A stretch of DNA of 64,000 nt from Parcubacteria group bacterium GW2011_GWC1_36_108 (GCA_000991245.1 LBRD01000006.1:39340-103339); one strand, 5' to 3'; shown: positions 19,610 to 61,953, counted from the first letter of the stretch. Program-made: numbers and translations. Notes: generated by a model from the letters alone, not told the origin.

Positions 19610-19678
19610 TTGTTTTTATTTTTGATTTTGTATTTTTCAATTTGCCAGTTACCAGTTATTGATTACTGGTTACTATTC

Positions 19679-23053: not shown

Positions 23054-23074
23054 GCAGCATGTATCATATAGCAT

Positions 23075-23148
23075 GTAACATAAGACTCAAAGAAAAAAGC
23101 TGAATCTGTATTTTTGTTATATGTTATATGTTGTATGTTATATGTTTT
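23075..23148. repeat. Representative intergenic tandem-heptamer inverted array (CATATAG-type arm, AT spacer, TTATATG-type arm)
   Basis: CATGTATCATATAGCATGTAACAT...TTGTTATATGTTATATGTTGTATGTTATATG. Same architecture at about 19 other intergenic sites. Confidence 0.8.
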
Positions 23149-25989: not shown

Positions 25990-26526
25990 TTATTTACTTG
26001 ATTTTTTACCTTCTTTTCTTCGTACATGCTCTCCAACATATTTAAATCCTTTTCCCTTGTACGGTTCAACTGGCTTAAGTGCTCTAATATTAGCAGAAAA
26101 TTGCCCAACCTTGTGTTTGTCAATTCCTGATACTGTCATCACATTTCCCTCAATCACAACATCCAAATCTGCAGGAACTTCAACAACTACAGGATGTGAA
26201 AATCCGAGCGCAAGAGTAATGGTCTTTCCTGCAATCGCCATACGAAAACCAACTCCATTAAGTTCAAGTTGTTTCTTGAATCCAGTTACCACTCCTTCGA
26301 TCATATTTTCAATCACACGAGCTGTTGTGCCCCAAAGAGCAGGAACATTTTTACCTTTAGCTTCTTTTTCAACCGTAAATTCTTTTTCTCCAAATTTAAT
26401 CGAAACATCAAAATGATGCTGAAATGTCATCGTGCCTTTTGGACCAACAACAGTAACCAGATTTTTATCTGTTGTTACAGTTACGCCTTCTGGGATAGCT
26501 ACAGATTTTTTTCCAATTCTACTCAT
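25990..26526 (-). CDS. rplF: Ribosomal protein uL6
   Basis: MSRIGKKSVAIPEGVTV. Confidence 0.9.
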   Translation of the reverse strand: MSRIGKKSVAIPEGVTVTTDKNLVTVVGPKGTMTFQHHFDVSIKFGEKEFTVEKEAKGKNVPALWGTTARVIENMIEGVVTGFKKQLELNGVGFRMAIAGKTITLALGFSHPVVVEVPADLDVVIEGNVMTVSGIDKHKVGQFSANIRALKPVEPYKGKGFKYVGEHVRRKEGKKSSK

Positions 26527-26623
26527 ATATATTTAACTTACAACTCATAACTTATAACTTATAACGTGCCATGCTTGAGTTTTTTAAGTTGTTTGTTATT
26601 GGTTATTAGTTATTAGTTATTTC

Positions 26624-32205: not shown

Positions 32206-32282
32206 ATCTTTCTTAACTCATGGAACATGGAGCATGGAACATGCATTCTTGCTCTATGTTTTATGTTATGTGTTCTATGTTA

Positions 32283-32681
32283 TTATGCTCCTTGAAATAA
32301 TTCAATCTTATCTCCCTGTTTCAATGTTACTGTTGCTTTTTTGAATCCTGCCTTTGTCCCCATATGACGACCATATGCTTTCTTTTTAGACTTGATGTTC
32401 ACAACACTAACTTTTTCAACTTTCACACTATACATTCCCTCAATTGCCAATTTCACTTGTTTTTTTGTTGCGCTGTGGATAACCTTGAAAGTATACTTAT
32501 TGTCAGCCATTGCTTTGTGAGTCTTTTCAGTAATCCAAGGTTCAGTAAGAACACGATATGCAATATCCGAATTTTTTGCAGCAACAATCACTTCTTTTTT
32601 GTCAGCAGCCTTTTTAACTGCTTTCTTAACAGTCGGCTTTGAAGGGGTTGCTAATTCTTTTTTTTCTTCTATTACTGCCAT
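32283..32681 (-). CDS. rplW: Ribosomal protein uL23 (N-terminal extension)
   Basis: YRVLTEPWITEKTH...KVIHSATKKQVKLAIE. Confidence 0.85.
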   Translation of the reverse strand: MAVIEEKKELATPSKPTVKKAVKKAADKKEVIVAAKNSDIAYRVLTEPWITEKTHKAMADNKYTFKVIHSATKKQVKLAIEGMYSVKVEKVSVVNIKSKKKAYGRHMGTKAGFKKATVTLKQGDKIELFQGA

Positions 32682-32782
32682 ATATTTAACTTATAACTCA
32701 CAACTTACAACCGACAACGGTCTTCTCATCTTAATTGTGATTTTTCTTGTTGTTAGTTGTTAGTTGTTAGTGGTTTGTTAAT

Positions 32783-36642: not shown

Positions 36643-36681
36643 GTTTGTATTTTATAACTATAAATTAGGTGCGTCAAACCT

Positions 36682-36753
36682 GCCCCGTGAAATTGTTTAC
36701 CCTATTGAATTTATTTTATTCAATAGGGCGGTACTCAGCACTATTTCACTGGG
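36682..36753. other. Structured leader element, copy b (40 nt upstream of the coiled-coil gene)
   Basis: CCCCGTGAAAT...[CCCTATTGAAT-loop-ATTCAATAGGG]...ATTTCACTGGGG. Confidence 0.7.
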
Positions 36754-36764
36754 GTCAATTTTAA

Positions 36765-37031: not shown

Positions 37032-37328
37032 ATAAATTGACTTACAACTAACAATTCCCAACCAACAACACACTAATGCAAACTAGCTGCACACATGTAT
37101 TGTGGTTAAAAGTTATTAGTTATGAGTTGTGAATTATTGGTTGTTAGTTGTTTGTTATAAGTTGTTAGTTATTCATAAGCCTGGCCACTGCTCATAGTGA
37201 TATCATAGCACTTACCCAATATCACTGCAAGCATCAACGGCTGTGGATAACTTGGGGTAGGTTTTAGGTGTTAGGTTGTAGCTATTAGGTTTACAAAAAA
37301 ACAGCCCTTGCGAGCTGATTTTAGAGAT

Positions 37329-41731: not shown

Positions 41732-42307
41732 TCACATGAACACATTTTCTGCATTGTTTCTATCGCGATGCCACATTTCGGGATTGATTTTTATGTATTC
41801 TCTGATTTTATTCAGTGATTCGTCGTCGCGAATTATGTGATCATAGAAACGAGGCTGCCAAGCAAAATTCATAGTTTGACCAATATGATTTATTTCAAAT
41901 GAACATCGACCCTTATACCATCTAATTATTTTTGACAAAGAATATGGGTTATTCATAGGATTATTTTTTCCCGTGATACCACCCGTAGAGACGCGATTAA
42001 TCGCGTCTCTACGCATTGCCATGTTAATATCATTTTTGCAAATTTCAATTATCCCATGAACATGATTAGGCATCACAACAAATTCATCCAAAACAATAAA
42101 TGGAAAATGATCTGGAATTCCCTTCCAACATTCTTCTGCGATTTTTCCAATTTTATTCAACACCATTTTTCCATCCACAATCTCGCCAAAAAATTCCTCG
42201 CGATTTTTTGTGCAGATAGTCACGAAATACATCCCATTTTGAGAATAATCATAACCCTCTAATCTTGCAGATTTAATTGTGTATTTATTTTTAAATTTTT
42301 CTTGCAT
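41732..42307 (-). CDS. HuH tyrosine transposase, IS200-like / REP-associated (RAYT) type
   Basis: HuH motif MPNHVHGII and a downstream IIRWYKGRCS (Y-KG-S pattern). No tnpB partner. REP-like palindromes sit inside the gene and upstream. Confidence 0.65.
   Translation of the reverse strand: MQEKFKNKYTIKSARLEGYDYSQNGMYFVTICTKNREEFFGEIVDGKMVLNKIGKIAEECWKGIPDHFPFIVLDEFVVMPNHVHGIIEICKNDINMAMRRDAINRVSTGGITGKNNPMNNPYSLSKIIRWYKGRCSFEINHIGQTMNFAWQPRFYDHIIRDDESLNKIREYIKINPEMWHRDRNNAENVFM
41985..42012. repeat. REP-like 28-bp perfect palindrome GTAGAGACGCGATTAATCGCGTCTCTAC (copy inside the RAYT coding sequence, in frame)
   Basis: Direct reading. Identical to the copy at 42400-42427. Confidence 0.85.
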
Positions 42308-42399
42308 TTTTGTTTATTTTATATATCCATTATTGCATAAAAATTAATATAACAAAAAACGATTTCATTAGGAAATCGTTTTTTGTATAGAAACGTTGC

Positions 42400-42427
42400 G
42401 TAGAGACGCGATTAATCGCGTCTCTAC
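42400..42427. repeat. REP-like 28-bp palindrome, second copy, between fusA and the RAYT gene
   Basis: Direct reading. Confidence 0.85.
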
Positions 42428-46644: not shown

Positions 46645-46855
46645 GTAGCAAATCTGAAAGATATAAATTTTTTCAAATTTGAAGCATTGTTATATATTAT
46701 ACGTTGTATGTTAAACGATTAACTCTTGCCAATTCATAACATCCATGATATATTAAAACTTGTAATAAATCAAATGGTTATGGCATACAATTTATAGTGT
46801 TTAGCAAGAGATTGTTATATGTTATATGTTATATGTTATATGTTGTCTAAATATG

Positions 46856-49289: not shown

Positions 49290-49625
49290 TTATTTCTTTT
49301 CTGTTGAAGTTGTAGTGATAACCTCTTTTACTATTTCATCTCCCTTCTTTTTCTTTTCAACTTTGAAAATTCTGGCCAAATACAAAGAAATAGCCACGAC
49401 AGCGACTGTCACAATAGTGGCATATAGAAATTTAGCCTTAAGCCCATCCCCCGGTTCAGCAAAAAATCTCTCGATGAAAGCTTTAATAGCATCATTCCAA
49501 GCAAGACCCGCCACGAGTCCAAAACTGGTAATGATATATCCCAAGGTTTTTTCGCGAATCTCTCTTTCAAGTTCCGCACCCTTGTCCTTTATTGTGACTA
49601 TTTTTTCAGTAATTTTTTTCATCAT
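49290..49625 (-). CDS. Small protein with a C-terminal transmembrane helix (hypothetical)
   Basis: Charged N-terminal half and a hydrophobic helix LYATIVTVAVVAISLYLA. Preferred over the antisense plus-strand ORF. Confidence 0.35.
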   Translation of the reverse strand: MMKKITEKIVTIKDKGAELEREIREKTLGYIITSFGLVAGLAWNDAIKAFIERFFAEPGDGLKAKFLYATIVTVAVVAISLYLARIFKVEKKKKGDEIVKEVITTTSTEKK

Positions 49626-49683
49626 GGTTTAGTTTACGCGGTTTATATCAGCTTTCTTTCAAAAATATATTACACAAGTCACT

Positions 49684-49750
49684 CGAATACATTTTTCTTT
49701 TTGTCCCGTGGAAGTACTCTTCCAAGCGAAAAAAGAAAAAGTATTCTCGC
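49684..49750. repeat. Hairpin repeat R2, inverted copy
   Basis: CGAATACATTTTTCTTTTTG-[CCCGTGGAAGTACTCTTCCAAGC]-GAAAAAAGAAAAAGTATTCTCG is the reverse complement of 50696-50767. Confidence 0.8.
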
Positions 49751-49761
49751 TCCAACTTTTG

Positions 49762-50424
49762 CTAAAATAATCGACTTGCGGGTTTTTCAAAAGTCATCTT
49801 ACGATAAACGTCGCGAGTAGTTTGCACGTCGCGTTTGCAATATTCCAAAATGTCATTCACTTTTCCATCGGCAAAAAATTGAGCAACTTGCGATCCATCA
49901 ATGCCATCTTTTGGCGAAGGAATGTCGAGAGCTAGTGCCAAATATTCCAAACCAATACTTGAATTTGACCATTTTACCCACTCCTTCATCGTGTCATAAA
50001 TTGGATAACCTCTGTAGCGTGCAAAGTTCAATTCATATGCAGGTTTAACTCCAAGCACAATTGAGCGTTGATAGATGAAGCGCAAATCAAAATCCATCAC
50101 ATTGTGCCCGATAAATTGCAGATCATAATCTGGATATTGCATATTGCGCGGAGTCGAACTAAGCGCATCAACCAAATGCCAAAATTGCTGCAGGGTTTCC
50201 TTTTCGTTATTTTCGTTATAAAAATTTTGCGGCGCATCGTCGTCCACAGCATATCCAATGCAAAGGATTCTTCCAAAAGCTCCGTCAAAGTTTGTCTTTT
50301 GAACAAATTCATCGAATTTTTCCTGATCAAATTCAGGATTTTTTTTATCAAAAAGAAGTCGCAATGTTTCCATTTTGCTTTCTTCAGCCGGCAAAGTTTC
50401 AATATCCAAAAATAGTTTTCGCAT
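49762..50424 (-). CDS. RNase H-fold 3'-5' exonuclease related to the PolB exonuclease domain (COG3298-like)
   Basis: Exo I LFLDIETLP, Exo II FIGHNVMDFDLRF, Exo III YCKRDVQTT. Confidence 0.6.
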   Translation of the reverse strand: MRKLFLDIETLPAEESKMETLRLLFDKKNPEFDQEKFDEFVQKTNFDGAFGRILCIGYAVDDDAPQNFYNENNEKETLQQFWHLVDALSSTPRNMQYPDYDLQFIGHNVMDFDLRFIYQRSIVLGVKPAYELNFARYRGYPIYDTMKEWVKWSNSSIGLEYLALALDIPSPKDGIDGSQVAQFFADGKVNDILEYCKRDVQTTRDVYRKMTFEKPASRLF

Positions 50425-50471
50425 AAATATTTTTTCAATGATTACCTAGATAGTATAACACAAAAGACTCT

Positions 50472-50767
50472 TTTCCACATTTCTTTTTCCGCAAAAGAAA
50501 CGTGGAGCAAAGAAAACTCGCACCTGATGAAGGTACTGTGGCAAAAACTTCGCTCTTCGCTAAAATTTACACTTCGCGCCTACGCTTGCTAGCGGGCGCT
50601 ACGTTTTAAAATTTCTTAACGCGAAATCGCTTGTTTTTCGCCTACGTACTTCATATGGTGCAAAGGGAATGCGGGATGCAAATGCAACTAAGTAAGAGTG
50701 AGAATACTTTTTATTTTTTCGCTTGGAAGAGCACTTCCACGGGAAAAAATAAAAATGTATTCGAACG
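50472..50767. repeat. Composite intergenic repeat element (R1 module, 92-nt insertion, R2 hairpin module)
   Basis: Homologous at roughly 85-90% identity to 54661-54892 apart from the insertion. Confidence 0.8.
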
Positions 50768-50837
50768 ACACAAAAAATATAACTACGCTACACTAAATTA
50801 GAAAACAATAAAAAAACATTTCCCAAAGAAAATGTTT

Positions 50838-51548
50838 TTAGAGAACTTTCAATTGTTTTACAATCCTTTCATATTCAGGGATTGTCTGACCAACGAGATT
50901 CCAGAAACGCTTGCCGTGGTTAAATTCTTTCAAATGGCAAAGCTCATGAACGATAATGTAATCCGCGTGGCGTTGCGGCAAAAGCAAAATCTTGTAATTA
51001 AAATTCAAATTGCCCTTTGAAGAACATGAGCCCCAACGAGTTTTTTGATTTCTAATTGCAACCCCATTATATTGAAAACCATAAAATTCAGCATACTTTT
51101 CCAAACGACTTTTTACCATTTCGCGAGCAGTTTCCTTAAGTTTCAGATATTCAGCTTGATCATGACGTGCAAAAAGACTATTTCGTCCGATTTTTTTCAT
51201 GGTCTTCATTTTTTCAAGCACCCACTCAGCATTTTTTCGGATAAAATCATCAGCGCTAACAAACCCCATGCGCCATGGCAAGGTTACAGTACAATTTCCA
51301 TCACAAGAAATGACTAATTTAAGCCTTTTTGCGGTTCTGTGCTTTCTTACGGTATATTCAATTTTCTCGCTTCGCAGCGTCATTTTTTTCTGAATAGTCA
51401 TCTTGGTTTCATCAACTGGTTTATTGTTTTCTTCATCAATATCAAGCCAATCTTGCAATGAAATACCCTCTTTTAAGGAAAAACTTTCCCCAAAATTGGT
51501 TAGGTTTGACAAATATACATTAAAATGTTTTAATATGTATTTTTTCAT
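50838..51548 (-). CDS. YgjP-like (DUF45) metal-dependent hydrolase
   Basis: HELCHLKEFNHGKRFWNLV (HExxH plus a downstream H). Confidence 0.65.
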   Translation of the reverse strand: MKKYILKHFNVYLSNLTNFGESFSLKEGISLQDWLDIDEENNKPVDETKMTIQKKMTLRSEKIEYTVRKHRTAKRLKLVISCDGNCTVTLPWRMGFVSADDFIRKNAEWVLEKMKTMKKIGRNSLFARHDQAEYLKLKETAREMVKSRLEKYAEFYGFQYNGVAIRNQKTRWGSCSSKGNLNFNYKILLLPQRHADYIIVHELCHLKEFNHGKRFWNLVGQTIPEYERIVKQLKVL

Positions 51549-51735
51549 GAGCCTGTTTAAAATCTCATGCCTTGATAAAATGTTCTGATTTCGAGCGAAA
51601 ACCGTGAAAAGCGAGGAGGGCTATCGAGATAACCCGACGAGTTTTGAGCGGTTTGCAGCCGAAATCAGGACATTTTAGCAGGCAAGCGATGTAATTCCGA
51701 CCCTACATAAGAGCGATGAGACTTTAAACAGGCTC

Positions 51736-52950
51736 CTATTGCTTGATCAATATGTTATACCTCGCGACAGATTTGTTGTAAAGTGCCACCTTTTCGTTAT
51801 ACTTTTTCACATCTTTTTTATAATTATCCAAATAATTATTATATTCTTTGACGAGTTCATTATATTTTTCAACATTTTGATCATTTTGAAATGCATCAAG
51901 CTCCTTTTTCATATCCCCCAGTTTTTTTTCTTCTTTTGCAATTGTTTTTTTCTGCGCTTGAAGCTGCGGCAACAGTGTTGCTATACTTTTTTTGAGACTA
52001 TCAATTTCGGCAATGATTTTTTTTGTTTCAATTATTCCTAAATACTGTCGCCCAGAAGTTTTTTGATAGATCGTCACCAGTGTTAGTTGTTGCAATACTG
52101 CTTGCTGAGCCTGCTGAGAATCAAGAGCGGTCAATTCATCCGCACCAACAGCCTTGTTACTAGCTGAATCAAATGATGGAATGATTCCAATCTTGTTTCC
52201 CACACTAGTTGTTTCTGCGTAACAATACCCGCTACCATAAGTAGAAGAATCTTTCGGACAAGCAATTCCAATTGCCATATGATTATCCTGCTCATAAGCA
52301 AAGATAGCCGTCCCATATCCCATCTCTCTAAGCAGTGCTACGGCAAGCAGGCTCTTGTCCGAACAAACACCGGCTTGCTCAAACAATGTTTCGTATGGAT
52401 ACAAAATTGTTTCAGAATTTGTTTGTGCCAAAATATTTTTAGCCTTGGCATCGTCATAAACAATTGCTTGTACAAAAGCCAACGTCAAATCAACAATTTG
52501 ATCATCCGAAAGTTTGTGCTTAAGGCCGAGCTCCTGAAGCTTGGCAGCGAGACTAGCAATTGATTTATCATTTTCATCGCGAGTCAAAAACATTCCGTAG
52601 TATTCTTCTTGCCAATTCTGCTTGAGTTCGCCAGTATAAGAAAACATTTTTGGTGCTGTTTTGTAATATTCATAAACTGATTGATACAATGTTTCAGTCA
52701 GTTTATATTTCGCACCTTTATATTCCCAATTAAATTCGCGAGAAACAGGATTTTGCAACTCCGGAAAAGGGTTTGTCTTTTTTTCTATTTCCAATTGGGT
52801 TTTTGTTTCCGACACAAGCTCTTGCAAAGCAGGAATAATCTGAGAGGGAGACTCCAAACCTTTCTTTTGATACACATACAAAAGCAACCCCGCAATAACT
52901 GCGAGTTCTATCAATATTATTCCTATTTTTTTCAGCCAACTCGTAAACAT
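51736..52950 (-). CDS. Membrane-anchored transglutaminase-like protein with a C-terminal coiled coil
   Basis: N-terminal transmembrane helix. GVCSDKSLLAVALLREMGY...NHMAIGI resembles a Cys-His transglutaminase core. The C-terminus is Lys/Glu-rich. Confidence 0.45.
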   Translation of the reverse strand: MFTSWLKKIGIILIELAVIAGLLLYVYQKKGLESPSQIIPALQELVSETKTQLEIEKKTNPFPELQNPVSREFNWEYKGAKYKLTETLYQSVYEYYKTAPKMFSYTGELKQNWQEEYYGMFLTRDENDKSIASLAAKLQELGLKHKLSDDQIVDLTLAFVQAIVYDDAKAKNILAQTNSETILYPYETLFEQAGVCSDKSLLAVALLREMGYGTAIFAYEQDNHMAIGIACPKDSSTYGSGYCYAETTSVGNKIGIIPSFDSASNKAVGADELTALDSQQAQQAVLQQLTLVTIYQKTSGRQYLGIIETKKIIAEIDSLKKSIATLLPQLQAQKKTIAKEEKKLGDMKKELDAFQNDQNVEKYNELVKEYNNYLDNYKKDVKKYNEKVALYNKSVARYNILIKQ

Positions 52951-53084
52951 TAGGATTTAGGAATTAGGAGTTAGAATTTGGAAGTTAGGGCATTAATAAG
53001 TATTGTTAGAGGTCAGTTTATATTAATACGAAAACAGCATTAACTTTCTTTAATATGCTCCAATCATAGCAAAATTAAGGCAAA

Positions 53085-53121
53085 GAAAAAAGGGGCGTCG
53101 CATTTATTGCAAACACCCCTT
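53085..53121 (-). terminator. Terminator for the 90-aa gene
   Basis: AAGGGG...CCCCTT stem, with a T-run on the minus strand. Confidence 0.5.
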
Positions 53122-53212
53122 ATATTTTATCCATTACTTTTTAAGTAATACGCCTCCTTGTAATTGGCGCCGCCATATCTGCATTGTGGTGCAGACTGAC
53201 TGGGATAAAAAA

Positions 53213-53485
53213 TTACGAAATAATCAGCTGAGAACACTGCCTCTGAAGATTGTTTGGCAGCGGCACATTGAGCTCCCTGAATCTTTTTACGGTAGTGATA
53301 ATATTTTTCAAGATTGGAACAATGTTGCGTCGCCCTATTCTTTTTGCTTTATCAAGCTTTGCGAGATTGTTATGAAGATTTTGACGCATTTTTCCGAGTT
53401 CACGATTTTCGATTTTGGCAACTATTGCTTGCCTTGCCAATCCTGGATCCCCAACAAAAGAAATCTGTTGCTTGAACATAATCAT
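53213..53485 (-). CDS. Hypothetical 90-aa protein
   Basis: AAGGGGGAA RBS upstream of the ATG and a terminator downstream. Confidence 0.4.
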   Translation of the reverse strand: MIMFKQQISFVGDPGLARQAIVAKIENRELGKMRQNLHNNLAKLDKAKRIGRRNIVPILKNIITTVKRFRELNVPLPNNLQRQCSQLIIS

Positions 53486-53915
53486 TTCCCCCTTTTCATT
53501 TGAAAGTGTGCTGCCTAACTATTTGTCATTTTTAATTATAACTGAACATTTATCTCCTGCGATTACTTGTAAATTGTTTACTAAGTTTAAATTTTGAGAG
53601 GGCAAAGATTCTTGTGTTACTATTAAATCATTGCCGTATCTGACAACACAAAAATCAACATCCACATTATTCAAGTTCTCTTTAGCTCGATCTGCCATCG
53701 CAGTATCCCCCTTCTTAGTTGTTAAAAAACAAAAAACCAGCTTTCGCTGGGTGGTTTTTACATAAATTCTGCTAACAATTTTTATGCAATATTACCCAAC
53801 GAAAATTTGCCTCCGACTAGGAGAATGTTCAGGTCCAAGAGGACAATCGCAAATTTTATTGAGAAATTATTCATATACAGTCATTATAGCTGGTTTTTAC
53901 TGATTGTCAATAGCA

Positions 53916-53945
53916 AAAAGCTGGCCATCAAAGGCCAGCTTTTTA
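53916..53945. terminator. Bidirectional terminator downstream of ndk
   Basis: AAAAAGCTGGCC-ATCAAA-GGCCAGCTTTTT. Confidence 0.75.
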
Positions 53946-53966
53946 AATCTTCCTAATACCTAATAC

Positions 53967-54569
53967 CTATTCCAGTATTCCATCAAGGTTTACATCATAC
54001 AACATTGCTTCTGAAATTGAACGATATGCAATGATCTCACTTTCATCAAACCAAATTTTAATTTCTCTTTCTGCTTCTTCTGGTTTGTCGGAGCAATGGA
54101 TCAAGTTTCGCACGGCGCGACCATCCATCCCTGCCAAGTCATATGAATCCAAAGTGAGGTCGCCACGAATTGTTCCGATATCAGAAGTCAATGGTTCAGT
54201 TCCACCAACCAATTTTGTCACAATTCCAACTGCAGAATTTCCCTCAATTACCATTGCAAGCACTGGCCCAGAAGTCATAAATGTTACCAACTGACCAATA
54301 ATATCACGACCATACTCAATCGCCTCTTTTTCAACAGGAAGTTTCATTTCTTCTCGTCCTTTCACAATTCGTTCCCCTTTTGATTGAAACCACGCCTCAT
54401 CTTTATTATAATGCGTCCAGCATTGCTCAGCTTTGGGAACCAACATTTTCATTGCAGTAAGTTTAAGACCAACTCTTTCAAAACGAGAAATGATCTCGCC
54501 AACCATAGAACGTTGAATTCCATCGGGTTTGATAATTACAAATGTTCTTTCTTTTTTTGGATGTTGCAT
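53967..54569 (-). CDS. ndk: Nucleoside diphosphate kinase (with internal insertions and a C-terminal extension)
   Basis: ERTFVIIKPDGIQRSMVGEIISRFE and the active-site NLIHCSD. Start trimmed to MQHPKK. Confidence 0.8.
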   Translation of the reverse strand: MQHPKKERTFVIIKPDGIQRSMVGEIISRFERVGLKLTAMKMLVPKAEQCWTHYNKDEAWFQSKGERIVKGREEMKLPVEKEAIEYGRDIIGQLVTFMTSGPVLAMVIEGNSAVGIVTKLVGGTEPLTSDIGTIRGDLTLDSYDLAGMDGRAVRNLIHCSDKPEEAEREIKIWFDESEIIAYRSISEAMLYDVNLDGILE

Positions 54570-54660
54570 ATTACTTTGTCTTTTATAAATTAAAAAGCGA
54601 TTATCTCGCTGAATATTCATATTTTAGCAGAAAATTGAGATTAATCAAGAGCCGTGCTTA

Positions 54661-54892
54661 TTTCCACATTTCTTTTTCCCGCAAAAAGAAACCTGGAGGA
54701 AAGAAAAGCTCGCACCGGATGAAGATACTGTGGCAAAAACTTCGTTCTTCACTAAAATCAAAGGGATGCGGAATGCAAAAAAAGCAAGAGTGAGAATGAT
54801 TTTTGTTTTTTCGCTTAAAACAAGTCTCATTGGCGTTATGTCAAAAGTTGCAATTGTTTTTCTGTGACAAAAACAAAAAGGCATTCTCACGA
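54661..54892. repeat. Composite intergenic repeat element (R1 plus R2 with a nested insertion)
   Basis: See 50472-50767. The R2 loop carries the insert AAAACAAGTCTCATTGGCGTTATGTCAAAAGTTGCAATTGTTTTTCTGTGACAAAAAC, which is also present at 61871-61927. Confidence 0.8.
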
Positions 54893-54902
54893 TTTTCAAA
54901 AA

Positions 54903-55775
54903 TCAATTAGCACCCTTTAAAACACATTTCGAAGAATTATTCATACATTCATAAACAATGTTACCCAACTCATCTGTTCTGAGAATGTTTGCTCGATGTT
55001 GTGTAAGTCTTTGCAAGACTTCAGGATTTGGATGTCCGTAGGAATTATTTTTGCTGACAGAAATGATTGCATCGGTTGGGGTCACTTTATCCAAAAATTC
55101 ATTACCGGTTGCATATTTTGACCCGTGATGTGCAACTTTCAAAAAGTCTGCATCGATATCGATATTTTTTGCCAACAGCTCATTCTCCTGCTCACTTGTC
55201 AAATCCCCTGTGAACAAAAATTCATTCTCCCCAATTGTTAATTTTACCAACACACTATTACTATTTGTATCCTTGTCATTAACATTAGCAACCGTTTCAA
55301 GTGGATATAAAATTTCAGCCGCAGCTCCATTGGAAAACTTGATACTAACATTTTTCTTAGCTTCAATTTTTTCCACTTTATTCTTTTCAATTTCCTCTTC
55401 CAATTTTTTATAGGTCTGAGATTCACTTTGTATTTTTGTTTCCAAAATAGAATTGACATTATACGCATTTATAACATCCACCAGTCCTCCAATATGATCT
55501 TGATCTGGATGCGAAACAATAATCGCTTCAATATTACGATCCCAAAATGGAATATACTTGCCCATTTTTTCCAGAAGCAACTTGCCATCTTTCCCACCAT
55601 CAATCAAAAGTTGCTGAGAACCATTAGAAATCAAAATTGCATCTCCCTGCCCAACATTCAAAAAAACCACGGCAAGCGGAGAATTTTTACTATGAAAAAT
55701 AATTGCAATCAAAATAATTGCAATCGCGGCAAGCGATGCCAGCACTGTGTAAATTAATTTTCTATTATTTTTCAT
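54903..55775 (-). CDS. Metallo-beta-lactamase-fold protein corresponding to the ComEC C-terminal domain (own N-terminal transmembrane helix)
   Basis: LNVGQGDAILI and SHPDQDHIGG. 4-nt overlap with the upstream comEC ORF. Confidence 0.7.
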   Translation of the reverse strand: MKNNRKLIYTVLASLAAIAIILIAIIFHSKNSPLAVVFLNVGQGDAILISNGSQQLLIDGGKDGKLLLEKMGKYIPFWDRNIEAIIVSHPDQDHIGGLVDVINAYNVNSILETKIQSESQTYKKLEEEIEKNKVEKIEAKKNVSIKFSNGAAAEILYPLETVANVNDKDTNSNSVLVKLTIGENEFLFTGDLTSEQENELLAKNIDIDADFLKVAHHGSKYATGNEFLDKVTPTDAIISVSKNNSYGHPNPEVLQRLTQHRANILRTDELGNIVYECMNNSSKCVLKGAN

Positions 55776-57295
55776 TTTCCATTTTTTGTCCTACTTGTCA
55801 AAAGATCGTTATACAACATTTCCTCCTCAAGTTTAATTCTAGCATATTCCTGCTTCTTTTTTATCCAGAAAATAACTATCGCAAGTGTTACATAATACAA
55901 AAAAACCTGCCACGGCGTAACTTTTTCTATTTCAACACTTGCCCAAGGAAACTGCGCTAGAATATGAATTAGTTTTATCTCATAAAATAAGAGTACAAAC
56001 GCCAGCCAAGAAAAAACCAGCGAAAGTGGCGAAAAAATAAAACCGAAAAGACACACAAGAAAAACTAGCAGCATCGAGAGCGGAACGATTGGCAAAATAA
56101 AAACATTAGCCAAGAGTGAAATTGGCGACACAATATTGAAATTATATGCAATTATTGGAAGCACAAAAATCTGCGCACTGAGAGACAACAATATAATTTC
56201 AGAAATCCCAAAGGCTTTATGATTTTTAATGAAACTTTTTTCCCAAAAAGATGCGCTCGCAACAATTCCAAGAGTTGCCAAAAATGACAATTGAAAACCA
56301 ACATCCCACCGGAGTAATAGTGGATTAATCGCGAGCATAATTGCACCCGCGAAAATAATCGCATTTTCGCAGTTTGCCAACCGCCCATTTTTCATCGCCC
56401 AAAGTAAAATAGAGCTCATCACCCCCGCTCGCACTGCTGAAGAAGGAAATCCCACCATAACAACAAACAAAAATATTCCAACAATTGCAAACCAAATTGC
56501 TTGCTTGCGCCAAAGTCCCAAAAAAATTCCCAGCATTATTAAATATTCCGCAATGATTGTCACATTATATCCAGAAACAGCTACAATGTGTGTCATCCCA
56601 GTGCGAGAAAAATCATTTTGAATTTCTTTTGAAAGTCCGCTTCCACCACCAAACAAAAGTCCACTGGCCAATGCGCCATAAGGCTGTGGAACAACCTTTG
56701 TTATCTTATTTTCAAACGTTGTTCGCGCTAAAATTATTTTAGAATAAATCCAATTACCTTTTTTCTCAGCAATCTTTTCTATTTTTCCCTTGCATTGATA
56801 CAGCACGCCTTCTTTTGCCATATACATCTTGTAATCAAAACTGGCATTCAAATTTTCAATTGGTTTTAATATGCAAGAAACATCCAATAGATCGCCATAA
56901 AAATATTCTGGATATTTCGCGGATTGAATTAAGACTAAAATTTTTTCCTTTGAAAATTCTGCAACAATATTCTGTCCGAAAGCTGAGGGAGTAACTTTTT
57001 CAACTATTGCAGTTTCCTTGAATGTTTTGCCTGAATAAATTAAGTTTTTTGTTCTTTCAATTTCTTTGTCAGTAATCCACCCACCCAAAACAAAAGCGAG
57101 CGCAAAAAAAGCAGCCAGCGCTGCGAATTTATTTTTGCCTGCCTGCCGGTAGGCAGGTAAAAAAATAAACAACATTATCAAAGAAAAAAGTGCTAGCAGA
57201 AAAAAATAATATTGATTTATTTCAAAAAACGACCGCACAAAAACACCCCCAACAAAATTCAACAGCACAAACAAAAAGACGCGTGATCTACTCAT
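55772..57295 (-). CDS. comEC: ComEC/Rec2 competence channel protein (DUF4131 plus competence domains, no lactamase domain)
   Basis: Multi-pass membrane protein with MTHIVAVSGYNVTIIAEYL, the typical ComEC segment. Confidence 0.7.
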   Translation of the reverse strand: MSRSRVFLFVLLNFVGGVFVRSFFEINQYYFFLLALFSLIMLFIFLPAYRQAGKNKFAALAAFFALAFVLGGWITDKEIERTKNLIYSGKTFKETAIVEKVTPSAFGQNIVAEFSKEKILVLIQSAKYPEYFYGDLLDVSCILKPIENLNASFDYKMYMAKEGVLYQCKGKIEKIAEKKGNWIYSKIILARTTFENKITKVVPQPYGALASGLLFGGGSGLSKEIQNDFSRTGMTHIVAVSGYNVTIIAEYLIMLGIFLGLWRKQAIWFAIVGIFLFVVMVGFPSSAVRAGVMSSILLWAMKNGRLANCENAIIFAGAIMLAINPLLLRWDVGFQLSFLATLGIVASASFWEKSFIKNHKAFGISEIILLSLSAQIFVLPIIAYNFNIVSPISLLANVFILPIVPLSMLLVFLVCLFGFIFSPLSLVFSWLAFVLLFYEIKLIHILAQFPWASVEIEKVTPWQVFLYYVTLAIVIFWIKKKQEYARIKLEEEMLYNDLLTSRTKNGK

Positions 57296-57329
57296 ACGTC
57301 TATTATATCAAATTTATTAAATATATCCA

Positions 57330-57548
57330 TCAACCAATATCAACCATTTTTATCTTGGTAGTTTTTCCTCCGACAATATTTATCATGCTTTTGGAAACTT
57401 TAAAATGTTGTGACAACAATTTTATCAGAGCCTCATTGGCTTTGCCGTCGACTGGCGGAGCTGTAAGCTTCACTTTATATTCGCCCTCAGAAACTTTGAT
57501 GATTTCATTTTTGGAAGATTTGGGGGAAACTTTTATATATATTCTCAT
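57330..57548 (-). CDS. yggU: YggU/DUF167 family protein
   Basis: KVSPKSSKNEI...LTAPPVDGKANEALIKLL. Confidence 0.7.
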   Translation of the reverse strand: MRIYIKVSPKSSKNEIIKVSEGEYKVKLTAPPVDGKANEALIKLLSQHFKVSKSMINIVGGKTTKIKMVDIG

Positions 57549-58480
57549 CGTACTATATCTCCATTATTAATACTTTCAACATTTCTTCTGGCAATATTTT
57601 GTTTAATGCGAATAAACATATTAACAAGCATCAAGATAATCAAAAATATGTTTGCATAAACAAATATATTTCGTATGATTTCATTTTTCATATCAGTACC
57701 CAAAAAATAAGCGTGGACAATAACTCCGACGTATAAAATAATATTTAAGAAATGCACAGCTCGCCATAATTTAAATGAAAGGTGTTTGCGAGCATACGAT
57801 GTGACAACTAAAATTAGCATCAAATAAAATCCGATGATTCCCATCGCTACAAGTGCTGGCTCGTAAGTTGAAGCAAGCGGCACCAAAACATCAATCAGGT
57901 TGAATCCCATAAACTTGTCAAAAATCAAAACCGTGCCATGAACAAGCGCAAACAAAGTTGCTTGCAGTGCAATCCAACCATGCGCGTTCAGCGCATATAC
58001 AGGTGCAAAAACTTTTCGCAAAAATGGAACTCTTATTGTTAACGCTAAAAATATAGAAATATACAAAAGAGTAAAACCAAGCAAGCCACTAGCGCGAGAA
58101 ACGTACCAAGCCCAAGGAGTTTCATTTTGAGATTGGTTTATATCATCTTGAGTCACTGCCGGCTTTCCTGGGATTGAAATAGCGTCTAACGGATCACTTT
58201 TAGCCAAGATTTCCGTGCCATCATAATATCCATCATTATCACTGTCCGGGTTTTTAGGATCAGTTTTGTATATCTGATCTTCAGCCTGATCAGTGAGTCC
58301 ATCCAAATCCAAATCAACTATTGGCTGCCCTTGATAATCAATTTGCTGTTGCCCTGTTTCAACTTGCTGAGCATTTGCATACCAAAAAGAAAACAACCCA
58401 AAAAACACAACGGTCAAGAGCATTTTTCTCCCGTCAAAAGTATTTCTTTTTTGCTGCAATGTTTTTTCAGCTTTTTTCAT
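57545..58480 (-). CDS. Membrane protein with N-terminal Asp-rich (thrombospondin-type-3-like) repeats and a C-terminal multi-helix domain with conserved His residues
   Basis: DLDLDGLTDQAEDQ...DSDNDGYYDG. Helices containing AHGWIALQATLFALVHG. Confidence 0.35.
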   Translation of the reverse strand: MKKAEKTLQQKRNTFDGRKMLLTVVFFGLFSFWYANAQQVETGQQQIDYQGQPIVDLDLDGLTDQAEDQIYKTDPKNPDSDNDGYYDGTEILAKSDPLDAISIPGKPAVTQDDINQSQNETPWAWYVSRASGLLGFTLLYISIFLALTIRVPFLRKVFAPVYALNAHGWIALQATLFALVHGTVLIFDKFMGFNLIDVLVPLASTYEPALVAMGIIGFYLMLILVVTSYARKHLSFKLWRAVHFLNIILYVGVIVHAYFLGTDMKNEIIRNIFVYANIFLIILMLVNMFIRIKQNIARRNVESINNGDIVR

Positions 58481-58512
58481 TTTTTCAATATTATATTAAA
58501 TTAACTGGATGT

Positions 58513-58539
58513 GTCATTCCCGTGAAAACGGGAATCCAG
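58513..58539. repeat. Hairpin repeat GTCATTCCCGTGAAAACGGGAATCCAG
   Basis: Reverse-complement copy at 21476-21502. Variant at 21389-21419. Confidence 0.8.
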
Positions 58540-58615
58540 GGCTGGGCATCGCTCTGGATCCCCAGTCCCTCCAGAGGCGGGCACGGCAAGCTGAGGATGA
58601 CAACACAAAAAAATA

Positions 58616-59560
58616 TTACAAATTATGCAAATATTTTTTAGCTTCAGGAGAAATCCAGGCGCTGCCGCGACAATCCAAAAAGACTGCTGCTACATTATTT
58701 TCTCTTGCATATATTATACCATTTTTCTTTCCCATTAAAAACAGGCTCTTTGCCCACACGTCAGCCTCGGTGGTTGAATCCGCAATAACAGAAAACGATT
58801 TTATATCAAATAAAAACTGATTTGCATTCTTTGGGTTGATAATGTGATGCATCATCTTGCCATCAATCTCCCACCTTCTTTTTCCTATACCAGATGTTGC
58901 AATTGCCATATTTGAAAGTGCAAACATTATTTTTTCAGCAGAAATACCTTCAACATCAACTGTCCACAATTTTCCATCCTCATCGTTTCCTCGCATAAAA
59001 ATATCCCCGCCGGAATCAATCAGAAAATTTTCCCATCCTTTGCTATCAAAGAAATTAACGACTTTGTCAGTAACATATCCCTTAACAATTCCTGAAAAAT
59101 CCATTTTTACTCCAAAAAAAACTTTGTCGTCTTTTATTTTTAAATCTTCATTTAACTTCTTATTTGAAAGCAGTGTTTGGTTTTGAATATTTTTTCCCAA
59201 TTTACGTGTTCCCATTTCAAAATCATCAGCATAACCAATATTCTCAAGCACGCCTAATATTCTTGGATCAAACAACCCCTCGGTTTTTTTGTTATATTCT
59301 AAGGAGAGCGAAGCAACTTCTCTCATAACATCAGAAGCAAAATTCCAATCTCCAACAGCCAGATTTAACTTTGATAATTCACTTTCAAAAATGAAGCGAC
59401 TGAACGTATTTGTGAAATCAACATACATTTCTTTTGCTTGCGCAATGTTTTCAATGGCATTTTTTTGCTGCACTTCATCAAGCGCAACTACCTGAAAAAC
59501 AATATCCGTCCCAAGTGCACGAAATTGTTCTCGAATGATGCAAGGAAATTTCATATCCAT
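58616..59560 (-). CDS. apbE: ApbE-family FAD:protein FMN transferase
   Basis: ALGTDIV, IVKGYVTDK, FLIDSGGDIFMRG, AIATSG. Confidence 0.7.
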   Translation of the reverse strand: MDMKFPCIIREQFRALGTDIVFQVVALDEVQQKNAIENIAQAKEMYVDFTNTFSRFIFESELSKLNLAVGDWNFASDVMREVASLSLEYNKKTEGLFDPRILGVLENIGYADDFEMGTRKLGKNIQNQTLLSNKKLNEDLKIKDDKVFFGVKMDFSGIVKGYVTDKVVNFFDSKGWENFLIDSGGDIFMRGNDEDGKLWTVDVEGISAEKIMFALSNMAIATSGIGKRRWEIDGKMMHHIINPKNANQFLFDIKSFSVIADSTTEADVWAKSLFLMGKKNGIIYARENNVAAVFLDCRGSAWISPEAKKYLHNL

Positions 59561-59563
59561 TTT

Positions 59564-59926
59564 TTAATTTTCAAATGTATCAACGATTCCGTTTAGATCA
59601 TCGTCTTTTACGATATATATTTCTGCGATGTCCGGATGTTTGTCCTCATCATCAGGAATACCGTCGCGATCACGATCTGAAAGTGAAATTGTTTGCAGCT
59701 GATTTTCTGTAACTATTTTTGCAGGCTCAACAACAATCGTTTCTTCGACCGTTACAGTTTTTTCCGATGATGAAGAAGGTTCAACTTTGACATCTTCATT
59801 TTCATCATCATCTTCTTCGTATTCTTCCTCATCATCATCGGCATTTGCAAAATGAAAAACACTTAAGCCTCCGCCAAAAACCAAAGAAAAAACCATAAAC
59901 AGAACTGCAAATTTTTTCTTGAACAT
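59564..59926 (-). CDS. Secreted acidic protein (signal peptide plus an Asp/Glu-rich segment)
   Basis: MFKKKFAVLFMVFSLVFGG, then DDDEEEYEEDDDENED. Confidence 0.4.
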   Translation of the reverse strand: MFKKKFAVLFMVFSLVFGGGLSVFHFANADDDEEEYEEDDDENEDVKVEPSSSSEKTVTVEETIVVEPAKIVTENQLQTISLSDRDRDGIPDDEDKHPDIAEIYIVKDDDLNGIVDTFEN

Positions 59927-59955
59927 AATTTATATGTTTTTAAATATTTTAAACT

Positions 59956-60357
59956 TTATGATTTTTTTGTGGTTGTTTTTGAGGAAGTTGAGCTTGATGC
60001 TGGTTTTGTCACTGTCACTGTTTTTGTTACTGCTGGAATAGTTTTTGTTACCGACACGCCAACTTGCCGCTCCACCGTGCCCGGATTGTTAGCAACGCTA
60101 TTAACTTTTGTCGCCTTATCCGTCAAGATACGCTGCTGAGCATCAAGAGCATAATCAGTTGCTGATTTATAATTTTGCAAGTCAGCCTCAGCAATCACAC
60201 TTTTTGCTTCTTCAACATTTTTTTGACGCATAAAAAGAACAGCCGAAAACACAAGCACGGCATTCATAACAAAAAACATTAATTTCCCGCCATGTTTTTT
60301 TAATTTTTCTAATAACATTGTTTTATTTTTTATTGTTAAACAATTAATCACACACAA
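59956..60357 (-). CDS. Membrane-anchored Thr/Ser-rich protein (hypothetical). Start uncertain.
   Basis: One hydrophobic helix, then VTKTIPAVTKTVTVTKPASSSTSSKTTTKKS. Confidence 0.3.
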   Translation of the reverse strand: MCVINCLTIKNKTMLLEKLKKHGGKLMFFVMNAVLVFSAVLFMRQKNVEEAKSVIAEADLQNYKSATDYALDAQQRILTDKATKVNSVANNPGTVERQVGVSVTKTIPAVTKTVTVTKPASSSTSSKTTTKKS

Positions 60358-60564
60358 TTTATGACTTTAAACACTGAGTTCAGCGCTTAATTTTTGTTTG
60401 CCTATTTCCTTTTTGAGCACGTTCTTGACCCAAGACTATGGTCAAGAACTCAAAGAATTGCTGTCGCAATAATTGGCCAACCGCCTATTTGATATTACGC
60501 CTTGTGAGTATATTTTATTCATTTTTTTGATATATTCAAAAAAATGCCCGCGCAAGAGCATTTT

Positions 60565-61263
60565 TTAGTTATTTTCGCGTATTCCACAAATATCAAAATT
60601 GTTCTCAATGCTTTTCTTTATTTTTTCCAAATCAAGTGTTTTTCCGCTTGTTATTTTTTTCATATTTGGGTTAATGGTTCGCATTTCACGATATTCTTGC
60701 AAATAATATGCCTTTGCACCCTTGATCCATTTGGCAATTTTTAAAAAATCATCTTCACTATGAATCCCTGGAACAACCGTGGTGCGAAACTCATATGGAA
60801 CACCACTTTGCATAATCATAATCACACTCATTTTTATTCTTGCAATATCGGTAGTGAGTCCTGTTGCTATGCTGTACTTTTTAGGCGAATGTTTTATGTC
60901 CATCGCAATAAAATCAACGAGCTTTTCTTTTATAATTCTTCTCAAAACATCTGGGCGTGTTCCATTGGAATCAAGTTTTACCTTATATCCCATCGCTTTT
61001 ATTTTTTTGATAAACTCAATAATATCCGGTTGTATTGTTGGTTCTCCACCAGTAATGCAAACTCCCTCAAGTCTACCCTTACGTTTTTCCAAATGCTGAA
61101 AAAATTCTTCTTCCAATTTATTCAAAGCTGGAAACTGAGACCTGATTACCAGCTCTGGATTATGACAAAAGGGACAACGAAAACTGCAACCAACAGTAAA
61201 AACCGTTGTTGCAATTGTCCCCGGAAAATCTATTAAAGTTAGTTTTTGAAACCCACCGATGCG
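60565..61263 (-). CDS. nrdG: Anaerobic ribonucleotide reductase activating protein (radical SAM)
   Basis: GCSFRCPFCHN (CxxxCxxC). Start trimmed to MRIGGF. Confidence 0.8.
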   Translation of the reverse strand, partial: RIGGFQKLTLIDFPGTIATTVFTVGCSFRCPFCHNPELVIRSQFPALNKLEEEFFQHLEKRKGRLEGVCITGGEPTIQPDIIEFIKKIKAMGYKVKLDSNGTRPDVLRRIIKEKLVDFIAMDIKHSPKKYSIATGLTTDIARIKMSVIMIMQSGVPYEFRTTVVPGIHSEDDFLKIAKWIKGAKAYYLQEYREMRTINPNMKKITSGKTLDLEKIKKSIENNFDICGIRENN

Positions 61264-61349
61264 CATATTTGTTTTTTTCTTTATCAAAAAGGAAATTTGA
61301 GGCAATTGCAAGCTGTGCGCAATTGCCTCATCATCATCCTTGCGAATTC

Positions 61350-61616
61350 TTAGCAAGAAGCGCAAGCTCCGTCGGTTACAACATATTCATTGCGATCTGC
61401 AAATTCTGCTTGTTTGCCCTTGTTCCATTGTGTCACTGGACGAATGTATCCAACAACACGAGAATAAACTTCTGTTTGTTGAAAATTCTTAAGAACAGGA
61501 TCTTTTTGATGACAAGCTTTGCATTTAGTGTAAACTTCACTACCAACTTTGTACGGCATATATTCCTCATTGTTTTCGATTGATTTGCCACAATCATGGC
61601 ATGTGTATTTTTCCAT
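61350..61616 (-). CDS. Stand-alone Zn-ribbon plus glycyl-radical domain protein, paralogous to the NrdD C-terminus
   Basis: CHDCGK...CKAC, then TEVYSRVVGYIRPVTQWNKGKQAEFADRNEY. This nearly matches the NrdD C-terminus TEVYSRVVGYIRPVEQWNKGKQAEFGDRKEY. Confidence 0.6.
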   Translation of the reverse strand: MEKYTCHDCGKSIENNEEYMPYKVGSEVYTKCKACHQKDPVLKNFQQTEVYSRVVGYIRPVTQWNKGKQAEFADRNEYVVTDGACASC

Positions 61617-61627
61617 ATTTTTTCTTG

Positions 61628-61723
61628 CCCCGTTAAATTGCGGTAATCCGCAATATTTAACTGGGGTTTTTTATTTTAATTTTTAGACCCCAGTGAAATA
61701 GTTGCTTCGCAAATTTCACGGGG
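61628..61723. other. Two tandem copies (opposite polarity) of the CCCCNGTNAAAT...ATTTNACNGGGG structured element in the leader of the small nrd ORF
   Basis: 61628-61666 and 61688-61723. Related to 19541-19609 and 36682-36753. Confidence 0.7.
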
Positions 61724-61753
61724 TAAATATTTAATCATCTCAATCAAGAACGT

Positions 61754-61945
61754 CTTCTTGATTAAAATGCTGTTTTAATAACAAGGAGTGAAAATACTTT
61801 TTATTTTTTCACTTGCACCCTCCGGGTATATATTGTCTGGACAAAATCAAAGATTTTGAAAGCCAATTAAAACAAGTCTCATTGGTGTTATGTCAAAGGT
61901 TGCAATTGTTTTTCTGTGACAAAAATAAAAATGTATTCTCACGAC
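61754..61945. repeat. Partial R1 tail plus R2 hairpin module with a nested insertion, downstream of nrdD
   Basis: GAGTGAAAATACTTTTTATTTTTTCACTTGC...AAAACAAGTCTCATTGGTGTTATGTCAAAGGTTGCAATTGTTTTTCTGTGACAAAAATAAAAATGTATTCTCACGA. Confidence 0.75.
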
Positions 61946-61953
61946 GCTAATCA

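Follow-up and report, generated by a model that had tools for sequence, protein, structure and literature searches.

Modular hairpin repeats in the intergenic spacers of a groundwater Candidatus Moranbacteria lineage: a probable family of low-copy mosaic elements

The stretch of DNA analysed here (hereafter the window) comprises 64,000 nucleotides from the Parcubacteria group bacterium GW2011_GWC1_36_108 (GCA_000991245.1, LBRD01000006.1:39340-103339). It is A/T-rich (GC content about 0.36), the GC skew of its plus strand is negative throughout, and nearly all of its genes lie on the minus strand. Three spacers separating co-directional minus-strand genes are occupied by long hairpin-forming repeats, which we refer to as the R family: locus A precedes the gene for a PolB-like 3'-5' exonuclease (exo), locus B that for a nucleoside diphosphate kinase (ndk), and locus C that for an 88-amino-acid paralogue of the NrdD C-terminus (Table 1). 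A fourth copy, A2, sits in inverted orientation between exo and the adjacent DUF5654 gene. We consider it probable, at roughly 0.6, that the R elements represent a small non-coding family of interspersed mosaic repeats, low in copy number and limited to one groundwater lineage of Candidatus Moranbacteria (Parcubacteria, candidate phyla radiation (CPR)), whose members duplicate slowly and decay by deletion.

The R repeats of the window and their modules

The two principal repeats, R2 (four hairpins) and R1 (two copies), are present far above chance: a 25-nt pattern taken from the 3' arm of R2 matches four times with 0.02 matches expected, and a 26-mer pattern from R1 matches twice with an expectation of 0.00. 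The initial annotation had described inverted hairpin copies on either side of exo, and a repeat search recovers their arms at 49693-49758 and 50690-50755 with 88% complementarity; in a BLASTN comparison, 49678-49758 and 50769-50690 are 88.9% identical across 81 nt. The reported recurrence of R1 is equally well founded (50472-50566 versus 54661-54758, 90.8% identity by BLASTN), and the R2 copies of loci B and C share 93.6% identity (54815-54892 versus 61867-61944, BLASTN). When folding energies were compared with those of shuffled sequences, loci A and C reached z-scores of -7.3 and -7.5, and locus B only -1.35, since one arm and the apex of its H3 hairpin have been lost there. All four R2 copies of the 64-kb window fall within 12 kb, and at least five further loci were found on other contigs. 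Rfam returned nothing relevant, either for the whole window at gathering thresholds or for 49500-62100 at E <= 1, and viral contigs (searched with two patterns) as well as phage and plasmid collections contained no match, so that the R elements are not known cargo of mobile elements.

Read on the gene (minus) strand, which is termed sense throughout, the full composite runs R2, heptamer tail, H3 and R1b over about 330 nt, and locus A has it intact. R2 is a hairpin of 105-115 nt. Its basal stem of about 25 bp is rich in A/U and covaries, its inner stem has 8 bp, and its apex of 30 nt is conserved in sequence; the arms pair as GAAUAC-A-U5NU5 / A5N'A6-GUAUUC in the basal stem and as AGAAAAACAA / UUGUUUU in the second stem. 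The tail that follows is made of two to three GCATTCC-like heptamers, the number of which differs among the copies. H3 is a single irregular hairpin of 142 nt with 42 pairs. One of its arms is R3, the other is R1a, as the first half of R1 is called; R1b, the remaining half, forms a separate hairpin of 14 bp. The GC content of these parts is 0.25-0.37. An optional module of 54 nt, R4, is situated within R2 at locus C. The modules are found in several combinations, namely as R2 alone, R2 with R4, R2-tail-H3-R1b, tail-H3(R4)-R1b, H3(R4) alone and R1 alone.

Table 1. Position of the R modules and of the features next to them in the window
Feature	Coordinates	Strand	Remarks and evidence
A2, short-form R2	49678-49758	plus	inverted relative to the other copies; between exonuclease stop (49762) and DUF5654 start (49625); covariance-model score 59.2 bits
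PolB-like 3'-5' exonuclease gene	49762-50424	minus	context, outside the element; Pfam DNA_pol_B_exo2, RNase_H_2
Locus A	50425-50837	minus	spacer from YgjP-like peptidase to PolB-like 3'-5' exonuclease
Promoter-like extended -10 (TGTGTTATACT) of the exonuclease gene	50452-50462	minus	directly 3' of the composite; consensus only
R1b, locus A	50475-50505	minus	14-bp hairpin CCACGUUUCUUUU-GCG-GAAAAAGAAAUGUGG; fold energy
H3, locus A	50520-50661	minus	R3 50569-50660, R1a 50520-50568; minimum-energy fold
Tail, locus A	50662-50689	minus	heptamer-like repeats GCATTTG / GCATCCC / GCATTCCC, between R2 and H3; alignments
R2, locus A	50690-50769	minus	short derived form; repeat search, BLASTN, covariance model
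Terminator-like hairpin and U-run (AAAAACAUUUUCUUUGGGAAAUGUUUUUUU)	50810-50840	minus	over the YgjP stop codon; read from the sequence
Locus B	54621-54902	minus	spacer from ComEC/MBL-fold protein to nucleoside diphosphate kinase (ndk)
Promoter-like TTGATT-N16-TAAAAT	54621-54648	minus	TG 5' of the -10; directly 3' of R1b, upstream of ndk; putative, from sequence only
R1b, locus B	54664-54696	minus	BLASTN, fold
R1a, locus B	54697-54758	minus	orphan 3' arm of H3; R3 absent in the window at the junction of 54759 and 54758
Tail, locus B	54759-54779	minus	alignment
R2, locus B	54780-54894	minus	long form, 9 nt past the MBL-fold gene stop; covariance-model score 132.8 bits
Locus C	61617-61953	minus	spacer from NrdD to the 88-aa NrdD C-terminal paralogue
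R2, locus C	61778-61946	minus	long form with R4, 8 nt past the nrdD stop; covariance-model score 89.6 bits
R4 (AATTGGCTTTCAAAATCTTTGATTTTGTCCAGACAATATATACCCGGAGGGTGC)	61815-61868	minus	54 nt, after TTTT within R2; copies 100% identical in L005 and 98% in L027

This anatomy reverses the direction of several events that had been read as insertions. The supposed 92-nt insertion between R1 and R2 at locus A is R3, and its presence is the normal state; it is locus B of the window that lacks those 92 nt. Of this population, ten other assemblies extend over the site (L001-L004, L006, L037-L040), and all ten keep R3 at locus B, exactly between 54759 and 54758 and with flanks that are 100% identical in most of them. 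Since all of these have it, the window has lost 92 nt at this place, i.e., one arm and the apex of H3. In the same way, what had been called a 60-nt insert in the R2 loop belongs to the ancestral form and is present in eight of eight long copies; because all solo copies have the long form, as does locus A in L043 and L046 (exonuclease identities of 98% and 89%), the short loop of the locus-A copy and of A2 is the derived one. A2 was copied from the short-form R2 of locus A, or together with it. At locus C (61754-61945), R2 was correctly recognised; the partial R1 tail assigned to 61754-61780 is ordinary flanking sequence, common to a lineage bearing a different module set, and BLAST detects no R1 there. 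The assignment of the R1 stem, with its one G-U pair, to the minus strand holds for R1b (-18.1 kcal/mol sense versus -13.0 kcal/mol antisense).

A second private loss was noted elsewhere in the window, which alone lacks 76 nt between 46640 and 46639; the missing piece is present in all ten related contigs compared, it includes the start of an M50 peptidase gene, and the deletion begins within the loop of a heptamer hairpin. The resulting M50 variant of 214 amino acids has no record in the public gene collection searched. Both the 92-nt and the 76-nt loss may reflect a rare variant or an assembly error.

Occupancy of the same spacers in related lineages

The window was compared with about 40 related contigs from groundwater Candidatus Moranbacteria, which are labelled by L-numbers. 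Genes for the exonuclease protein occur on many near-identical contigs, which come from groundwater metagenomes of the Rifle type and from metagenome-assembled genomes named Candidatus Moranbacteria or Parcubacteria; more distant relatives were gathered via the 88-amino-acid protein, KsgA homologues and exonuclease homologues of 98, 96, 89, 86, 84 and 78% identity. A search for empty sites had been advised in the initial annotation, and the arrangements do indeed differ among relatives at A2, locus A, locus B and locus C.

A2 exists only in the window lineage. Relatives with exonuclease identities of 98%, 89% and 86% are devoid of it, the corresponding spacer measuring just 38, 68 and 49 nt in L043, L046 and L047, and in L045 the spacer is filled by an unrelated palindrome of the GTCATTCC...GGAATGAC family. 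At locus A, the composite stands in L043 and L046 and is lacking in L045 (exonuclease identities of 98%, 89% and 96%), and the spacer is only 58-82 nt long in L052 (84%) and L051 (78%). The composite of the window lies downstream of the terminator-like hairpin over the YgjP stop codon, a motif that recurs in L043 and L046 and the stem of which has too few G-C pairs to pass the terminator scan; in L052 (84%) a GC-richer terminator at that place is followed directly by an extended -10 promoter. The promoter-like motif upstream of exo (TGTGYTATAMT-like; TATGTTATAAT in L046) is kept in L043, L045, L046 and L047 whether or not a composite is there, and L052 has TGGTATAAT. These short terminator-promoter spacers in distant relatives imply that the locus-A composite was inserted between a probable terminator and a promoter in this clade.

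At locus B, the composite is missing in L036, L041 and L009 (L009 is itself a mosaic of two lineages that switches near the ygjP start), and a lineage of about 90% identity has an antisense gene in its place; no clean empty site was obtained here, as the antisense gene of the sister lineage leaves the boundaries undefinable. At locus C, the window has R2 with R4, and that same lineage of about 90% identity (L036 and L041) has instead an R2 stub (GGGAATG-TTTT-GCATTCC) followed by tail, R3 and R1. The modules of locus B in the window lineage are about 96% identical to those of locus C in L036, with flanking genes at 87-94%; this excess of module over flank identity makes locus B look like a paralogous copy of a composite formerly at locus C. 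R4 has entered two different host hairpins, R2 at locus C and the junction of R3 and R1a in L005 (100% identity) and L027 (98%), each time following TTTT and preceding AAGYG or WAGCG, without duplication. The H3 of L027 is enclosed by an extra perfect palindrome of 21 bp and is inverted relative to the flanking genes. On other contigs, solo R2 copies are positioned upstream of rsgA, mraZ, ksgA and tatD, and one R1 lies at a contig end; such unrelated neighbours speak for no common gene function.

The composite or parts of it have thus been copied into several intergenic spacers, the elements gain hairpin modules within their stems and loops, and deletions with an end point in a hairpin have removed parts of them. 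As a consequence of this copying, nesting and deletion, closely related lineages differ in what occupies the same spacer. We envision a duplicative spread without target-site duplication into A/T-rich spacers or existing hairpins, for which the recognition of single-stranded hairpins or template switching during replication would be the best-fitting mechanisms. The elements would have no dedicated function for the neighbouring genes and would influence them only through RNA structure when co-transcribed.

Selection on the hairpins and alternative readings

A number of observations weigh against a family of slowly spreading repeats. Its copy number is low, and a covariance model recovered only the known copies from 276 kb of related sequence. 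Among 185,579 species genomes, a 25-29-nt R2 pattern matched one other species; in metagenomes of the Joint Genome Institute (JGI) it yielded 24 matches, of which four are distinct true loci and the remaining 20 are chance matches within coding sequence. The locus-A composite persists down to 89% exonuclease identity. Target-site duplications beyond one or two ambiguous bases were absent in every comparison made (A2, window versus L043; R3, window versus L001; R4, locus C versus locus B and L005 and L027 versus L001), and neither a clean filled/empty junction nor a transposase gene with related ends was found on the contigs compared; the Y1 transposase-like gene of the window goes with a different palindrome.

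Further objections come from the pairing pattern. In R2, 7 of 33 pairs are changed on both sides, a number that at most 1 of 500 shuffles reaches and for which slid controls give 0-1; in H3 (six copies), 8 of the 42 consensus pairs are compensatory. A symmetric strand test counts 13 G-U cells in the sense consensus of H3 versus 1 in the antisense, for each of the six H3 copies the gene strand gives a fold better by 2.5-10 kcal/mol, and R1b behaves like H3 in this respect. Seven of eight R2 copies, including all of the long form, are oriented as the flanking genes. A compensatory and strand-specific pattern of this kind is expected of a selected RNA or single-stranded DNA structure and not of junk. 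The main stems of R2 are free of strand bias, and its small apical stem pairs, weakly, on the antisense strand only. Templated correction of quasi-palindromes can yield paired changes without any selection on RNA. It leaves the strand asymmetry of H3 unexplained, so that selection on single-stranded H3, either as RNA or as lagging-strand template, is plausible.

These data lend some credit to the view that the hairpins are selected cis-acting mRNA structures (stabilisers, RNase III-type processing sites or attenuators) that spread because they are useful. Apart from the covariation of R2 and H3 and the sense-specific G-U pairs of H3 and R1b, this view can draw on the orientation of the long R2 copies and the position of the solo copies 15-60 nt before the next start codon, on loci B and C, where no terminator separates the element from the upstream gene, and on L029, in which a promoter-like site upstream of R2 would put the hairpin into a 5' untranslated region. 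However, the composite of locus A follows a terminator-like hairpin and precedes a conserved promoter motif, the neighbouring genes are unrelated in function, sister lineages have no element or an unrelated hairpin at the same place, the H3 of L027 is antisense to its neighbours, the main R2 stems are indifferent to strand with an apex that pairs only on the antisense strand, and paired changes can also stem from templated correction. Elements are located downstream of terminator-like hairpins not only at locus A but also in L027 and L029, and the copy of locus A stands in addition upstream of a promoter motif; hence, a role within the flanking mRNAs cannot be general. The structured RNA of 3' untranslated regions that the initial annotation had offered as an alternative therefore fits loci B and C by position and fails for locus A, L027 and L029. 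Overall, we regard selected mRNA structures as an unlikely explanation of the family.

More specific RNA or promoter functions were considered as well. R2 was rejected as an intrinsic terminator, as on both strands its inner stem has the U-tract on the 5' side and the A-tract on the 3' side, and canonical terminators occur elsewhere in these genomes; no U-run follows R2, H3 or R1b. A promoter within R2 or R4 was likewise discarded, since TTGACA is present in the apex without a usable -10 after it on either strand (by eye and by scans). Nothing points to a riboswitch or a gene-specific cis-acting RNA, given downstream genes as different as exo, ndk, nrdD', rsgA, mraZ, ksgA and tatD and an empty Rfam result at E <= 1.

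Rather improbable, in our view, is an undescribed, hairpin-targeting and duplication-free process of single-stranded DNA insertion in Moranbacteria, possibly driven by the conserved Y1/HUH protein, that continually seeds spacers with unrelated long-hairpin cassettes, H3 at least being also selected as a strand-specific structured RNA or DNA. The cassettes would comprise R2, H3, R4, the GTCATTCC...GGAATGAC family and the heptamer-repeat hairpins, which would nest in each other's loops and replace each other at orthologous sites.

The window carries a Y1 (IS200-like/RAYT-like) transposase gene at 41732-42307 on the minus strand. A palindrome of 28 nt (GTAG...CTAC; GTAGAGACGCGATTAATCGCGTCTCTAC) stands at 42397-42427, upstream of this gene, and at 41985-42015, in frame within it, where it separates the HUH region from the C-terminal part. 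One may ask whether the R elements are non-autonomous derivatives of an IS200/IS605 or REP-RAYT-type system that are mobilised in trans by this protein, 8 kb away. In keeping with such an origin, every module is a hairpin, target-site duplications are missing, R4 was inserted 3' of a short conserved TTTT in two hosts, the orientation is biased on a replichore with one-strand genes and uniform GC skew, and a Y1_Tnp gene is found in every strain. However, the palindrome beside and inside the Y1 gene is unrelated to R1-R4, the R modules are much longer than REP sequences and have no GTAG foot at their 5' side, nothing indicates cleavage or excision, and the copy number is low. We consider trans-mobilisation by the Y1 protein quite improbable.

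Because three composite copies precede the genes for an exonuclease, a nucleoside diphosphate kinase, and a class III ribonucleotide reductase fragment with its activase, and R1b adjoins promoter-like motifs at loci A and B, one could suppose that the composite binds a regulatory protein and thereby places the DNA-precursor genes (exo, ndk, nrdD'-nrdG) under common control, e.g., via NrdR. This is highly improbable, as a canonical NrdR box (ACACAACATATAGTGT) is found upstream of nrdR and none like it in the R loci, solo copies precede rsgA, mraZ, ksgA and tatD, and ndk in the lineage of about 90% identity does without a composite. The small gene at locus C deserves a remark of its own. It is located at 61350-61616 (minus strand), between nrdD (61954-63975, minus strand) and the activase gene nrdG, and encodes a stand-alone NrdD C-terminus of 88 amino acids with four cysteines in a zinc-ribbon pattern and the glycyl-radical loop SRVVGY; it is 74% identical to NrdD residues 621-661 and 100% conserved in a lineage in which the surrounding DNA is about 90% identical. 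From its sequence, it looks like a GrcA/YfiD-style "spare part" for the class III ribonucleotide reductase.

Barely conceivable is a composite mobile unit in which the two inverted R2 copies, 88-89% identical and flanking the exonuclease gene as suggested by the initial annotation, are the ends: exo belongs to the syntenic core of Moranbacteria, the order DUF553-YgjP-exo-DUF5654-M50-S12-S7 being kept in relatives down to 78% identity, there are relatives in which the upstream copy occurs and the downstream one is missing, L005 has only the downstream copy, with no R2 hairpin upstream, and the gene together with both ends was never found in a new place, so that a composite transposon was rejected. 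In L005 (1-9140 versus the window from 50562 onward), the exonuclease operon is fused to a different upstream region with glycosyltransferases, an ABC transporter and an SLFN/AlbA gene on the opposite strand; the breakpoint falls inside the composite, of which the R2 hairpin is missing, the tail expanded and R4 inserted. The two inverted copies are, as far as the sequences tell, separate spacer insertions, and the bracketing of exo is incidental.

Relation to known repeat systems and to other structured spacers

BOX, BIME, NIME and Correia elements are modular, clustered, base-paired and intergenic (PMC3049150), and the pattern of the R family is alike. Like the BOX elements of Streptococcus pneumoniae and S. 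suis (boxA-boxB(n)-boxC), it consists of composite intergenic modules of which the outer ones pair and the inner ones are variable or absent; both are heavily base-paired, often clustered or nested with other repeats, and slowly mobile without a proven transposase (PMC3049150). No sequence relationship to BOX was seen, and unlike BOX, the R family has a handful of copies instead of more than 100, resides in a CPR bacterium, and has in the R2 apex an inner module that is more conserved than the outer stem. With the BIME/REP (repetitive extragenic palindromic) sequences of enterobacteria and the NIME/Correia elements of Neisseria, it shares the organisation as mosaics of palindromic units and linkers between co-directional genes; when transcribed, these elements can serve as attenuators, RNase targets or promoters (PMC3049150). 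REP units, however, are 20-40 nt in length, possess a GTAG foot and are tied to RAYT proteins, whereas the R modules are longer (54-142 nt), of low copy and devoid of GTAG at the stem base; the palindrome upstream of and inside the Y1 gene of the window, where a RAYT gene would have its own REPs, is no R module. Correia elements have terminal repeats of 26 bp. IS200/IS605 palindrome-associated and REP-RAYT systems resemble it in their hairpins, in duplication-free insertion beside a short motif and in their strand bias, and a Y1 gene is at hand in the window; unlike in these systems, the hairpin of that gene differs in sequence from the R modules, and no cleavage motifs were identified. The R family is likened to BOX and BIME by way of working and not by membership, and Rfam gave no match.

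With MITEs (miniature inverted-repeat transposable elements), the R family has in common that it is A/T-rich, non-coding and highly paired, that its inverted arms are long and that relatives differ in its presence at orthologous sites. It differs from them in that target-site duplications and a matching insertion sequence within reach are missing, the copy number is very low in the sequence covered, and the arms covary between copies and are not the conserved part. The MITE-like mobility originally proposed is thus borne out insofar as the modules are independent, hairpin-forming and nested and vary in presence between close relatives, but not with regard to target-site duplications, a matching transposase or copy number, and several of the alleged insertions are deletions elsewhere. 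The R family is not counted among the BOX, BIME/REP or NIME/Correia elements, and it lacks the target-site duplication expected of MITEs.

Structured spacers are common in this genome: 28 of 45 spacers in the window have a folding z-score below -2, and 22 of 45 below -3. Among sister lineages, the spacer between the rpfB-like gene and ksgA holds four different, unrelated long hairpins, and that between rpsL and rpsG three different hairpins or none. In the light of these structured spacers and hairpin swaps, the R family is one example among the hairpin repeats that generally colonise the spacers of these genomes.

Other hairpins of the window were recorded in passing. Intergenic hairpins with arms of tandem 7-nt units (CATGTAA/CATATAG with TTATATG/TTGTATG; AACTTAT with ATAAGTT) recur between many genes, namely at 12655-12749, 17034-17131, 23050-23148, 32218-32283 and 46667-46846 and also at 26506-26614, 32659-32775 and 37046-37173, and the same spacer can display different heptamers in sister lineages. 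The most extreme spacer of the window (-75.6 kcal/mol, z -10) is a near-perfect hairpin of 187 nt at 51549-51735, between a transglutaminase-like gene and ygjP, with terminal arms of 20 bp (GAGCCTGTTTAAAATCTCAT / ATGAGACTTTAAACAGGCTC). A palindromic family (GTCATYCC...GGATYCAG ... CTGGATTCC...GGAATGAC) is represented at 58481-58615 and in L045 (3665-3795), L049 (3875-4000) and L043 (2720-2835); in sister lineages it fills spacers held by R2 in the window, and in L043 it is nested within H3. Members of another family (CCCCRGTKAAAT...ATTTMACYGGGG) reside at 61625-61726, 19534-19629 and 36643-36764, and two inverted copies of it lie between R2 and the 88-amino-acid open reading frame at locus C. 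A motif of about 90 nt (TTGGCCAATTRTTGCGACAGCRAYTCTT-(stem-loop)-GCGTGC..AAAAAGRAAATAG) is common to 7213-7345 and 60358-60490 (minus strand), upstream of two unrelated open reading frames; its stem is compensatory (TTGGATA/TATCCAA versus TTGACC/GGGTCAA), and Rfam was empty for the copy scanned.

Finally, 1.5 kb without open reading frames (9731-11256) have a predicted structure of -483 kcal/mol and contain two TTGACA-N17-TATACT promoters (around 11050 and 10245, minus strand) with terminators about 750 and 330 nt further on (around 10270 and 9885). Rfam offered no credible match for this region, the only one at E <= 1 being a eukaryotic microRNA family far under threshold, and it is a candidate for unclassified non-coding RNAs. 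A scan of the window for tRNA and tmRNA genes found none.

CPR bacteria are usually described as streamlined, with little mobile DNA. In the genome studied here, structured repeats occupy most of the spacers, with turnover between lineages only a few percent apart, and the R family provides a tractable example with its modules, its nesting and its dated gains and losses. The R elements mark structural variation at the strain level and are likely trouble spots for assembly, they alter the promoter-proximal and intercistronic sequence of core genes (exo, ndk, nrdD/nrdG), and an observer may take them for regulatory RNAs. Should a function lie behind the strand-specific constraint on H3, this uncultivated phylum would have in it a new structured element.

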